Positions 18,006-63,910 of a DNA stretch of 64,000 nt are shown here, piece by piece. Under the pieces are notes generated by a model. The model was not told where the DNA came from. It was given only the letters and a program-made list of their open reading frames with translations, and made no database searches. The stretch comes from Escherichia coli (lineage in GTDB: Bacteria > Pseudomonadota > Gammaproteobacteria > Enterobacterales > Enterobacteriaceae). The stretch lies in NCBI RefSeq assembly GCF_045037415.1, contig NZ_CP173438.1. One strand, given 5' to 3'. The stretch's first letter is position 1. Every line of letters begins with the position of its first letter. Position numbers and translations under genes: made by a program.

Positions 18006-18094
18006 TTGCCGGATGCGGCGTGAACGCCTTATCCGGCCTACGGGACTGTTCATTTTGTAGGCCTGATAAGACACGCCAGTGTCGCATCAGGCAT
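18006..18094. repeat. BIME/REP composite element, copy 1 (araJ-mak intergenic)
   Basis: TTGCCGGATGCGGCGTGAACGCCTTATCCGGCCTAC...GTAGGCCTGATAAGACACGCCAGTGTCGCATCAGGCAT: paired, oppositely oriented REP palindromes of the GCCGGATGCGGCG type. Confidence 0.8.
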
Positions 18095-18134: not shown

Positions 18135-18224
18135 TTGCCGGATGCGGCGCGAGCGCCTTATCCGGCCTACCGGACGGCTCACTTTGTAGGCCTGATAAGA
18201 CGCGGCAAGCGTCGCATCAGGCAT
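18135..18224. repeat. BIME/REP composite element, copy 2 (tandem duplicate of copy 1)
   Basis: A near-identical ~90-bp unit 129 bp downstream of copy 1 (TTGCCGGATGCGGCGCGAGCGCCTTATCCGGCCTAC...GTCGCATCAGGCAT). Confidence 0.8.
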
Positions 18225-47527: not shown

Positions 47528-47578
47528 GCCTACGGGCGAAATGTAGGCCGGATAAGGCGTTCACGCCGCATCCGGCAG
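47528..47578. repeat. REP palindromic element (mhpT-mhpE intergenic)
   Basis: GCCTACGGGCGAAATGTAGGCCGGATAAGGCGTTCACGCCGCATCCGGCAG. Confidence 0.75.
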
Positions 47579-54919: not shown

Positions 54920-54995
54920 CACCATCGAATGGCGCAAAACCTTTCGTGGTATGGCATGATAGCGCCCGGAAGAGAGTCAATTCAGGGTGGTGAAT

Positions 54996-56078
54996 GTGAA
55001 ACCAGTAACGCTATACGATGTCGCAGAGTATGCCGGTGTCTCTTATCAGACCGTTTCCCGCGTGGTGAACCAGGCCTGCCACGTTTCAGCGAAAACGCGG
55101 GAAAAAGTGGAAGCGGCGATGGCGGAGCTGAATTACATTCCCAACCGCGTGGCACAACAACTGGCGGGCAAACAGTCGTTGCTGATTGGCGTTGCCACTT
55201 CCAGTCTGGCCCTGCACGCGCCGTCGCAAATTGTTGCGGCGATAAAATCTCGCGCCGATCAACTGGGTGCCAGCGTGGTGGTGTCGATGGTAGAACGAAG
55301 CGGCGTCGAAGCCTGTAAAGCGGCGGTGCACAATCTTCTCGCGCAACGCGTCAGTGGGCTGATCATTAACTATCCGCTGGATGACCAGGATGCCATTGCT
55401 GTGGAAGCTGCCTGCGCTAATGTTCCGGCGTTATTTCTTGATGTCTCTGACCAGACTCCCATCAACAGTATTATTTTCTCCCATGAAGACGGTACGCGAC
55501 TGGGCGTGGAGCACCTGGTCGCATTGGGTCACCAGCAAATCGCGCTGTTAGCAGGCCCATTAAGTTCTGTCTCGGCGCGTCTGCGTCTGGCGGGCTGGCA
55601 TAAATATCTCACACGCAATCAAATTCAGCCGATAACAGAACGGGAAGGCGACTGGAGTGCCATGTCCGGTTTTCAACAAACCATGCAAATGCTAAATGAG
55701 GGCATCGTTCCCACTGCGATGCTGGTTGCCAACGATCAGATGGCGCTGGGCGCAATGCGCGCCATTACCGAGTCCGGGCTGCGCGTTGGTGCGGATATCT
55801 CGGTAGTGGGATACGACGATACCGAAGACAGCTCGTGTTATATCCCGCCGTTAACCACCATCAAACAGGATTTTCGCCTGCTGGGGCAAACCAGCGTGGA
55901 CCGCTTGCTGCAACTCTCTCAGGGCCAGGCGGTGAAGGGCAATCAGCTGTTGCCCGTCTCACTGGTGAAAAGAAAAACCACCCTTCCGCCCAATACGCAA
56001 ACCGCCTCTCCCCGCGCGTTGGCCGATTCATTAATGCAGCTGGCACGACAAGTTTCCCGACTGGAAAGCGGGCAGTGA
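54996..56078 (+). CDS. lacI: Lactose operon repressor, 360 aa, GTG start
   Basis: Reading from the GTG at 54996 gives (M)KPVTLYDVAEYAGVSYQTVSRVVNQ...VSRLESGQ, the LacI sequence; ORF track starts 9 bp upstream. Confidence 0.97.
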   Translation: MKPVTLYDVAEYAGVSYQTVSRVVNQACHVSAKTREKVEAAMAELNYIPNRVAQQLAGKQSLLIGVATSSLALHAPSQIVAAIKSRADQLGASVVVSMVERSGVEACKAAVHNLLAQRVSGLIINYPLDDQDAIAVEAACANVPALFLDVSDQTPINSIIFSHEDGTRLGVEHLVALGHQQIALLAGPLSSVSARLRLAGWHKYLTRNQIQPITEREGDWSAMSGFQQTMQMLNEGIVPTAMLVANDQMALGAMRAITESGLRVGADISVVGYDDTEDSSCYIPPLTTIKQDFRLLGQTSVDRLLQLSQGQAVKGNQLLPVSLVKRKTTLPPNTQTASPRALADSLMQLARQVSRLESGQ

Positions 56079-60580: not shown

Positions 60581-60589
60581 GCAATCAAT

Positions 60590-60620
60590 GTCGGATGCGG
60601 CGCGAGCGCCTTATCCGACC
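60590..60620. repeat. REP palindromic element between lacY and lacA
   Basis: GTCGGATGCGGCGCGAGCGCCTTATCCGACC (inverted repeat GTCGGAT...ATCCGAC). Confidence 0.7.
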
Positions 60621-60645
60621 AACATATCAGGGCGGAATGATCGCA

Positions 60646-61257
60646 ATGAACATGTCGATGACAGAAAGAATAAAAGCAGGCAAGCTATTTACCGATATGT
60701 GCGAAGGCTTACCTGAAAAAAGACTTCGTGGAAAAACGTTAATGTATGAGTTTAATCACTCGCATCCATCAGAATTTGAAAAAAGGGAAAGTCTGATTAA
60801 AGAAATGTTTGCCACGGTAGGGGAAAACGCCTGGGTAGACCCCCCCGTCTATTTCTCTTACGGTTCCAACATCCATATAGGCCGCAATTTTTATGCAAAT
60901 TTCAATTTAACCATTGTCGACGACTACACGGTAACGATCGGTGATAACGTACTGATTGCACCCAACGTTACTCTTTCCGTTACGGGACACCCGGTACACC
61001 ATGAATTGAGAAAAAACGGAGAGATGTACTCTTTTCCGATAACGATTGGCAATAACGTCTGGATCGGATGTCATGTGGTTATTAATCCAGGCATCACCAT
61101 CGGGGATAATTCTGTTATTGGCGCGGGTAGTGTCGTCACAAAAGACATTCCACCAAACGTCGTGGCTGCAGGCGTTCCTTGTCGGGTTATTCGCGAAATA
61201 AACGACCGGGATAAGCAATATTATTTCAAAGATTTTAAAGTTGAGTCTTCAGTTTAA
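60646..61257 (+). CDS. lacA: Galactoside O-acetyltransferase (hexapeptide-repeat), 203 aa
   Basis: ORF 60595..61257; internal Met gives MNMSMTERIKAGKLFTDMCEGLPEKRLRGKTLMYEFNHSHPSEFEKRESLIKEMFATVG... Confidence 0.95.
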   Translation: MNMSMTERIKAGKLFTDMCEGLPEKRLRGKTLMYEFNHSHPSEFEKRESLIKEMFATVGENAWVDPPVYFSYGSNIHIGRNFYANFNLTIVDDYTVTIGDNVLIAPNVTLSVTGHPVHHELRKNGEMYSFPITIGNNVWIGCHVVINPGITIGDNSVIGAGSVVTKDIPPNVVAAGVPCRVIREINDRDKQYYFKDFKVESSV

Positions 61258-61269
61258 ATAAGCAAAATT

Positions 61270-61350
61270 GCCTGATGCGCTCCGCTTATCAGGCCTACAA
61301 TTTCAGTGATCTACGTAGGCCGGATAAGGTGTTCACGCCGCATCCGGCAT
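61270..61350. repeat. REP/BIME palindromic element cluster filling the lacA-codA gap
   Basis: GCCTGATGCGCTCCGCTTATCAGGCCTAC...GTAGGCCGGATAAGGTGTTCACGCCGCATCCGGCAT: two oppositely oriented REP units between the convergent lacA and codA stops. Confidence 0.75.
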
Positions 61351-61377
61351 AAACTACGCTCGCGGTAACCCAGCCGA

Positions 61378-62661
61378 TTACCGTTTGTAATCGATGGCTT
61401 CTGGCTGCTCCAGATATACGGTGGTTTGTGCCGGTTTTGTGCTGGCAATCACCTTGCCGCCACGTACCGAATAGCGCACCGGAACCTGACGGCGCAGCGC
61501 GTCAAACCCATTTTCAGCCGGCAGGATAATCAGGTTGGCGCTGTTTCCGGCGGCAATGCCGTAATCCTGCAAATTCAACGTTCTGGCACTGTGGTGGGTG
61601 ATTAAATTCAGGCCGTCGTTAATCTGCCCATAGCCCATCAGCTGGCAAACATGCAGCCCCATATGCAGCACTTGCAGCATATTCGCCGTTCCCAGCGGAT
61701 ACCACGGATCGAAGACATCATCGTGACCAAAGCAGACGTTAATGCCGGACTCCAGCATCTCTTTAACGCGCGTGATGCCGCGACGTTTTGGATACGTATC
61801 GAAACGTCCTTGCAGATGAATATTGACCAACGGGTTGGCGACAAAGTTAATACCGGACATTTTCAGCAAACGAAACAGGCGCGAAGTATACGCCCCGTTA
61901 TAGGAGTGCATTGCCGTAGTATGGCTGGCGGTGACTCGCGCGCCCATGCCTTCACGGTGCGCCAGGGCAGCAACGGTTTCGACAAAGCGTGATTGCTCAT
62001 CATCAATCTCGTCACAGTGAACATCGATGAGACGGTCGTATTTTTGCGCCAGGGCGAAGGTTTTATGCAGCGACTCCACGCCATATTCACGGGTAAATTC
62101 AAAATGCGGAATCGCCCCAACAACGTCTGCCCCTAAGCGTAACGCCTCTTCCAGCAACGCTTCACCATTGGGATACGACAAAATCCCTTCCTGCGGGAAG
62201 GCGACGATTTGTAGATCAATCCACGGCGCAACTTCCTGTTTCACTTCCAGCATTGCTTTCAGCGCAGTCAGCGTTGCGTCCGAAACATCGACATGGGTAC
62301 GCACATGCTGAATGCCGTTGGCAATCTGCCATTTCAGCGTTTGCCATGCGCGTTGTTTCACATCGTCATGAGTTAATAACGCTTTGCGCTCGGCCCAGCG
62401 TTCAATGCCTTCAAACAGCGTGCCGGACTGATTCCAGTTCGGTTGTCCGGCGGTTTGCGTGGTGTCCAGGTGAATATGCGGCTCCACAAACGGCGGTAAA
62501 ACTAAACCTTGTTCGGCATCCAGGCTGTTTTCAGTTACGGGCATCACGCCGGATTGCGCATCAATGGCGCTGATTTTTCCGTCGTGAAAATGAATCTGCC
62601 ACAGCCCCTCTTTGCCGGGTAACCGGGCGTTAATAATTGTTTGTAAAGCATTATTCGACAC
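61378..62661 (-). CDS. codA: Cytosine deaminase, 427 aa, GTG start
   Basis: ORF 61378..62676; reading from the GTG at 62661 gives [72 protein letters not shown]...; overlaps the codB 3' end by 11 bp. Confidence 0.96.
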
Positions 62662-63910
62662 TGTTAGCCTCCACATGCGTCATTGCTGCTGTCGTTTTAC
62701 GATTCAAAATCGGGTTAAGGATCAGATAGCTCAGCGCGCCACCTAATACCGCGTTGACCGGAACAATTCCCGGTAACCAGTGGCCTGCGGCAATCCCCAG
62801 CGCGACAGCCAGAATCGCCACCCAATTGACACTCATCATACGCGTGGTCGCAAAGTGCTCATAGCGGCGACGGTTCATCAGATAATCAGCGATGATCACG
62901 CCGCCCACCGGAGGAATAGCTGCCGAAAGGAAGGTCAACCAGCCGACAAAATTGTTATACAGCCATAATGCGCAGACCGTACCGATAATACCGTTAATCA
63001 CCGAAAGGGTTTTGCTCGACATACCGGTAATGTTGGCGAAACCTAAACCCGACGCATAGAGCGCGTTATCGTTGGTGGTCCAGATATTCAGCCCCAGCAC
63101 CACAATCGCAGGCAGCAGCAGGCCCTGAGCAATCATCACATCAGAGATATCCGCCATCCCCAGTGCCGCCGCGCCCGCTGCACCGAAAATAAACATCAAC
63201 GAGTTGCCGAGGAAAAAGGCCACCATCGCCACCAGCACCGCCAGTTTGGCATTACGACCAAACCGGACAAAGTCAGCGGTGAGCGTGCCCGCACTGATAA
63301 ATGACCCCACAACCAGCGCCAGCGCGACATTGAAATCTAACGGTTGTGCGGGAACGACCGCTTTTAATGCGTCCAGGCCGCCCATGCCGTTAACGGCCAG
63401 CCACACGGAATAACCGCCAAGACAGGCGATAGCCGGAACCGCAATCACCGAAAGAACTGTCAGCGCCGAAATGCCAAAGAAGACGGTGACGGTCATCAGT
63501 AAACCGGAGACGGCAATCAGCAAATTAATATCCAGCCCGGTTGCCTTGCCCACCGGAATAGCAAACATCGCCACGCCAACGCCAAACCAGCCAACCTGGG
63601 TGCCGCCCAGCAGCAGTGAAGGCAACCATGAGCCTTTAACACCAAACGAGAAGCGAGCAAGAAGATGGGTGGTCAGGCCGGTTTTTGCGCCAATGTAACC
63701 AAGAAATGAAGTGTAAATACCGAGGAGAAGATTACCGATGAGAACTGCGAGGAAGAAATCATGATAGCTAAGACCGGTTCCGAGAGTGCCGCCGGTCCAC
63801 ATACTGGCGGAAAAGAAGGTTAATCCCAGCATGACGAACGTCAATGCCAATACCCCTTTCCGCGCCGACTGCGGGACTGGCCCCTGGCTAAAGTTGTTAT
63901 CTTGCGACAC
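62651..63910 (-). CDS. codB: Cytosine permease (NCS1 family), 419 aa
   Basis: ORF translation [64 protein letters not shown]...; the first codon reads GTG in this sequence. Confidence 0.96.

Follow-up and report, generated by a model that had tools for sequence, protein, structure and literature searches.

What became of the cyanate genes that stand between the lac and cod genes of Escherichia coli K-12, and how did they come to be missing from the DNA under study? In K-12 MG1655, the gene order is codB, codA, cynR, cynT, cynS, cynX, lacA, and the stop codons of codA and lacA are 3,794 bp apart. In the 64-kb stretch of DNA analysed here (the window), the open reading frames and the sequence confirmed the short spacing given in an earlier note on this DNA: between the lacA stop (61257) and the codA stop (61378) lies a spacer of exactly 120 bp (61258–61377). 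The difference of 3,674 bp agrees with that note's statement that about 3.6 kb carrying cynR, cynT, cynS and cynX separate the two genes in K-12. The features of the region are as follows (window coordinates).

54987–56078, + strand: lacI, followed by lacZ, lacY and lacA, all on the + strand
60646–61257, + strand: lacA (galactoside O-acetyltransferase), intact, last gene of lacIZYA
61258–61377, no strand: lacA–codA spacer, 120 bp, the site without cynR-cynTSX (3,674 bp net)
61269–61298: Y-type REP palindrome, TGCCTGATGCGCTCCGCTTATCAGGCCTAC, matching the Y pattern GCCTGATGCGCTCCGCTTATCAGGCCTAC at 61270–61298; homologous to the REP abutting lacA in K-12
61299–61314: BIME linker, 16 nt, AATTTCAGTGATCTAC, a mosaic combining the two linker alleles of K-12 (lacA-side and codA-side)
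61315–61349: Z-type REP palindrome, inverted, GTAGGCCGGATAAGGTGTTCACGCCGCATCCGGCA; in K-12, a full-length copy is present on the codA side only
61350–61377: unique codA 3' flank, 28 bp, colinear with the K-12 sequence just downstream of codA
61378–62661, − strand: codA (cytosine/isoguanine deaminase), intact, convergent with lacA, GTG start
62651–63910, − strand: codB (cytosine permease)

The genes on either side of the spacer are in order. No internal stops were found in lacA, codA or codB, all of which are full length, and the extent of codA is that annotated in an identical RefSeq genome. In comparison with the K-12 proteins, 419 of 419 amino acids were identical in CodB (100%), 420 of 427 in CodA (98%) and 193 of 203 in LacA (95%); the 10 differences in LacA include the start codon (60646–60648), which is ATG in the window strain and TTG in K-12. 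The neighbourhood is thus the one known for the K-12 cyn operon, bounded by codBA and lacAYZI, but the operon itself is wholly absent from the window. None of its gene set (cyanase, carbonic anhydrase, cyanate transporter, LysR regulator) was detected: a tblastn search (E ≤ 1e-3) identified no homologue of CynR, CynT, CynS or CynX encoded within the 64 kb, and neither alignment to K-12 nor tblastn revealed a remnant of cynR or cynX in the 120-bp spacer. The claim that cynR-cynTSX is missing relative to K-12 therefore holds.

The spacer had been described as consisting nearly entirely of two REP-type palindromes. Two REPs are present indeed, but the BIME that they form (61269–61349) covers 81 of the 120 bp, leaving 11 bp beside lacA and the unique 28 bp beside codA. 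The Y-REP and the Z-REP stand head to head in opposite orientation on either side of the 16-nt linker, and a scan with consensus patterns that drew in part on the K-12 copies gave zero and one mismatches, respectively. Both carry the conserved GTAG/CTAC head, both lie wholly between the convergent lacA and codA stop codons, and each forms a hairpin of its own in the minimum free energy structure of the + strand. A repeat search placed the arms of the Z-REP at 61316–61332 and 61335–61351, with a second pairing that joins the two REP heads. For RNA transcribed from the spacer, folding predicts the REP hairpins on both strands, with energies of −40.5 and −46.6 kcal/mol (z about −3). Four matches to the Z pattern lie in the 64-kb window (zero expected), and queries containing the BIME gave a median of 16–37 matches per E. 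coli genome. In all these respects, as 29–35 nt imperfect palindromes with a GTAG/CTAC head that are extragenic, located between convergent genes, paired head to head and multi-copy, the two elements resemble the REP/BIME sequences of E. coli, and no difference from them was found.

By analogy with the established biology of REPs at 3' ends, the surviving BIME probably protects or stabilises the lac and codBA mRNAs by hairpins at their 3' ends and attenuates convergent read-through. No intrinsic terminator was found in the 120-bp spacer. We discarded the idea of an sRNA in the spacer because the sole Rfam match, to naRNA4 (a REP-derived nucleoid-associated RNA), scored 35 bits at 61318–61375, below the gathering threshold of 59.5 bits; this match is generic REP resemblance only. 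Other Z-type REPs in the window lie at 18008–18037, 18137–18166 and 47547–47576, the first two of which, 129 bp apart, probably form a BIME cluster. The lacY–lacA spacer (60581–60631) harbours yet another REP, TGTCGGATGCGGCGCGAGCGCCTTATCCGACC, which matches REP copies elsewhere in K-12 and again gave a sub-threshold match to naRNA4.

A BLAST comparison of the junction with K-12 yielded two colinear blocks, one reaching from the codA side to position 357566, the other extending on the lacA side from position 361181. The former spans codB/codA and ends 112 bp beyond the codA stop; the latter begins 68 bp beyond the lacA stop and continues into lacA/lacY. The two blocks overlap by 60 bp (window positions 61266–61325), all of them within the BIME, indicating that the cyn segment of K-12 has the same repeat at either end. 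In K-12, a full BIME follows codA, and a copy in the same orientation with an internally truncated Z-REP is found on the lacA side. The cyn+ layout is therefore codA, BIME, cynR, cynTSX, partial BIME, lacA, with the two BIMEs in direct orientation; this bracketing of cyn by direct repeats was found in K-12 and in a lineage approximately 10% divergent from E. coli (locus L096, see below). The K-12 codA–cynR spacer of 336 bp (NC_000913.3 357455–357790; L001 3956–4291) contains in addition a tandem duplication of approximately 200 bp, so that the whole BIME is present twice.

The allele in the window contains a single BIME, one flank of which aligns colinearly with the codA-side copy and the other with the lacA-side copy. 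The flanks are colinear with K-12 into the BIME; one hybrid repeat is retained, and nothing else is lost or gained. The linker and the Y-REP contain a mixture of K-12 left-type and right-type bases. Because this BIME is a mosaic of both K-12 copies, the crossover is blurred by divergence and cannot be placed to the base; such a mosaic is expected after approximately 3% divergence and gene conversion among REPs.

The short junction is widespread. Among 5,426 complete E. coli genomes, lacA is contiguous with codA in 1,019 (19%), and 4,262 (79%) carry cynR-cynTSX, always at 95–100% identity to K-12. At least 145 complete genomes show neither pattern, for example lac-deleted laboratory strains such as DH10B and other rearrangements. 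The 2.2-kb junction of the window was retrieved in 548 records at ≥99% identity, with lacA annotated directly beside codA in all, and genomes that are 100% identical to the window across the junction include O25b:H4-ST131 strains. The holders of the short junction include ST131, E2348/69, S88, UTI89, APEC O1, IHE3034, UM146, NU14 and the type strain ATCC 11775, all of which belong to phylogroup B2; annotation of the B2 genomes likewise puts lacA directly beside codA. The window strain is an ST131-like member of phylogroup B2, and the window represents the B2 allele of the lac–cod region.

The absence of cyn is a fixed difference of phylogroup B2. It was regarded in the earlier note as a strain-level presence/absence polymorphism, but it is the state of a whole phylogroup, found in about 19% of the complete genomes and published in 2009. 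The possibility raised there that most E. coli have the 120-bp spacing did not materialise (4,262 of 5,426 complete genomes are cyn+ versus 1,019 with the short spacing). As a whole, the first reading is partly supported: it was right in kind and wrong in scale, the loss being lineage-wide and not strain-level.

We consider it likely, from the arrangement of the repeats and their distribution, that cyn was lost by a deletion between two BIMEs in the B2 stem. In the B2 ancestor, homologous (unequal) recombination between the two direct BIMEs, with an assumed role for RecA, would have excised the 3.7-kb cynR-cynTSX segment. The product would be one hybrid BIME, its full-length Z-REP derived from the codA side and its Y-REP lying beside lacA, as seen in the window, and the deletion would then have been inherited by the whole of phylogroup B2. 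A recombination origin of the junction is well supported by the directly oriented BIME copies on both sides of cyn in cyn+ genomes; the earlier suggestion of a plausible recombination scar in REP sequence is borne out to this extent. Recombination between dispersed REP copies gives rise to duplications and deletions and has been described for Salmonella and E. coli.

The flanking repeats fit a deletion and a Campbell-type insertion alike, so that the distribution of cyn among relatives is needed for polarity. The relatives used for this purpose were strains of phylogroup F (the closest relative of B2 is phylogroup G) and the lineages represented by the loci L003 and L096/L097. In phylogroup F, IAI39 and SMS-3-5 carry cyn at the lac–cod locus, and in the phylogeny of Touchon et al. 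2009 (PMC2617782) the first split of the species leaves IAI39 together with B2. Between K-12 and F, the cyn genes differ by 0.6–3.6% per gene, and the flanking codB, codA and lacA by 2.2–3.3%. That cyn has diverged as much as its flanks indicates vertical inheritance over the same span. The GC content of the cyn genes (50–59%) resembles that of their neighbours. The codA–cynR spacer of the F strains is 132 bp long with a single BIME copy, compared with the duplication in K-12, and their cynX–lacA spacer (SMS-3-5, L084 25381–25467; IAI39, L083 10798–10884) contains a different single REP, TGTCGGATGTGCCCAATGGCGCATCCGACA, and no partial Y/Z BIME. Thus, the cynX–lacA spacer has been remodelled within cyn+ E. 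coli; the two-BIME state is not universal among cyn+ lineages, and we infer it for the B2 ancestor before the deletion.

A more distant cyn+ relative, approximately 10% divergent from E. coli, was found via a LacA cluster in two Logan assemblies with 99.99% mutual identity (L096/L097; ERR3985422 and ERR3985445). Its gene order is mhpCBA-mhpR-lacIZYA-cynX-cynS-cynT-cynR. The lacA–cynX spacer is of the K-12 type including the truncated Z-REP, and a K-12-type BIME follows cynR, within which the contig ends. The cyn region is 92% identical to that of K-12, which argues against a recent transfer. A second divergent lineage is cyn−. The locus L003 (NZ_JAATUR010000022.1, labelled E. coli SCPM-O-B-8794) is approximately 93% identical to the window over 12.6 kb (approximately 7% divergent) and shows lacA, BIME and codA with an 86-bp spacer and without cyn. 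The same arrangement was found in further assemblies encoding the LacY of L003, in eight of the eight places shown, which stand for 19 of the 24 contigs read. With cyn missing from this second divergent lineage, the loss looks recurrent. Most simply read, the cyn+ two-BIME state is old, and cyn was lost separately in the stem of B2, in the lineage of L003 and in several other strains.

Two of these other strains have junctions of their own. In the non-B2 strain 2015C-3905, codBA is 98.8% identical to K-12 and 97.0% identical to the window. After removal of an inserted IS621, the Y-REP of its junction is the K-12 lacA-side copy, and the linker and Z-REP are the K-12 codA-side copy; the crossover is exact, unlike in B2, and falls within the shared TTATCAGGCCTAC. 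Strain Z1323CEC0015 has the same LacA, CodA and CodB proteins but a different junction, which is of the K-12 lacA-side type through the linker and continues with a B2-type Z-REP, placing the crossover at another point. The different junctions in the two strains indicate that recombination at the BIME has taken place more than once. The B2 case is comparable to known REP-mediated chromosomal rearrangements in that the lost segment has direct repeats on both sides and a single hybrid repeat is left behind, with an unambiguous crossover in 2015C-3905; it differs in being a natural deletion fixed in a lineage, whereas the known case is a laboratory-selected duplication.

Three other explanations of the short junction were weighed against a BIME–BIME deletion in the B2 stem. 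An assembly collapse at the REP repeats, a possibility already raised in the earlier note, or a deletion confined to this isolate can be dismissed. REP repeats do break short-read assemblies, as the L096 contig ending inside the BIME illustrates, but the identical 2.2-kb junction is present in hundreds of closed genomes (the 548 records at ≥99% identity and the 1,019 contiguous cases), and assembly error is ruled out because the same junction occurs in approximately 1,000 independent complete genomes. According to a more substantial alternative, B2 has kept a primitive codA–BIME–lacA arrangement, and cynR-cynTSX was inserted later in the other E. coli lineages, for instance when a circle with one BIME integrated by a Campbell-type mechanism. 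Such an integration would also leave direct BIMEs on both sides, which makes the repeats symmetric evidence, and the cyn− state of the L003 lineage fits an ancestral absence and a parallel loss equally. CynS is patchy among Enterobacteriaceae, and in a search of CodA contigs neither lac nor cyn was found beside codA in any of the 79 loci listed from genera other than Escherichia (L003 is the one Escherichia locus in that list), as would also be compatible with a late arrival. We nevertheless regard an ancestral absence as unlikely: the F strains, grouped with B2 in the tree of Touchon et al. 2009, are cyn+, the divergence of cyn between phylogroups A and F equals that of the flanks, the approximately 10% divergent L096/L097 lineage has the K-12-type cyn+ layout with both junction types, the GC content of cyn does not set it apart from its neighbours, and the events seen in K-12-like backgrounds run in the direction of deletion.

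The deletion may also have happened elsewhere, with a ready-made cyn− haplotype reaching B2 from another lineage by homologous recombination across lac–cod. Alleles are exchanged between lineages at this locus, as indicated by the hybrid junction of Z1323CEC0015 with its K-12-like lacA side and B2-like codA side. We consider such an import quite improbable for B2, since its flanks are approximately 97% identical to those of A and F and only 93–95% identical to those of the one known divergent cyn− lineage, and no donor is evident; moreover, the imported haplotype would itself have originated by the same BIME–BIME deletion. Candidates for further outgroups were of little help. The CynS homologue P0113 (87%, labelled 'E. 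coli') was rejected as a second cyn type as its contig represents the normal locus in an assembly full of frameshifts, and the LacA cluster P0126 (88%, locus L100) was rejected as an outgroup because it is a K-12-like metagenome contig with 98.5–99.8% nucleotide identity. Locus L098 (LacA 85%) represents a genus-level relative (77% nucleotide identity) in which lacA abuts prpE and is uninformative for the polarity of cyn.

Returning to the BIME–BIME deletion, the evidence for repeated loss raises a wider reading, namely that the BIME pair bracketing cynR-cynTSX is a recurrent, genus-wide deletion hot spot and that the surviving BIME is repeatedly struck by REP-targeting IS elements. Under this reading, independent losses with differing crossovers number at least three or four (B2 stem, L003 lineage, 2015C-3905 and Z1323CEC0015), and we judge the chances of this reading, taken as a whole, to be evenly balanced. 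If true, the locus would serve as a natural test bed in which REP-mediated deletion could be measured, and perhaps also selection against cyanase in lineages adapted to a host. IS elements split the BIME at the same site in other strains: IS1 in two genomes, IS1397 in at least five and IS621 in 2015C-3905 (split copies H1/H2, H3–H5, H77, L085 and L083 14374–15722; in the cyn+ strain IAI39, the codA-side BIME is affected). In 2015C-3905, the insertion point of IS621 coincides exactly with the crossover inferred for the deletion (GGCC|TAC). Both IS1397 and IS621 are known to target REP/BIME sequences.

The loss of cyn in B2 has been known since 2009. Table 5 of Touchon et al. [quoted passage not shown] 2018 (PMC5996543), and B2 was negatively associated with cyanate degradation in Touchon et al. 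2020 (PMC7314097). The gene set and the lineage are the same as those found here, the window being 100% identical to ST131 across the junction. Where they treat B2, these papers give gene content; the single-BIME junction and its explanation by flanking repeats were worked out in this analysis. Our search for cyn in the source strain covered the 64-kb window, and its genome-wide absence rests on the literature. Lacking cynS, cynT and cynX, the strain is predicted to have lost CynS-dependent cyanate detoxification and the use of cyanate as nitrogen source because it has no cyanase, in agreement with the growth predictions of the published models (PMC5996543).

Absent cyanate degradation is a published metabolic marker of B2, the phylogroup of ST131 and of most extraintestinal pathogenic E. 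coli. To this record the present analysis adds a little, namely the anatomy of the junction and evidence that BIME-mediated loss has recurred; these provide a plausible mechanism, recombination between flanking BIMEs, and evidence that the loss is derived and recurrent. The case makes a tidy textbook example of REP-mediated genome reduction that will not surprise specialists.

A few observations concern the neighbouring genes. In Table 5 of Touchon et al. 2009 (PMC2617782), codA is also given as absent in group B2, yet it is intact and annotated in the window and in every B2 genome listed. In L098 (1–4218; Logan SRR29622568), prpE (86.5% identity) comes immediately after lacZYA (approximately 77% nucleotide identity to E. 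coli), codBA and cyn both being absent, and the whole prpE–lacA interval seems to be modular among the relatives of E. coli. Among the matches listed, CodB and CodA of Hafnia paralvei ATCC 29927 (L004 8743–11284) are 94% and 90–91% identical to the E. coli proteins, and those of Citrobacter reach 82–84%, below Hafnia paralvei despite the greater taxonomic distance of Hafnia. Because the identity exceeds that of the more closely related Citrobacter, the comparison of these proteins suggests a horizontal transfer of codBA.
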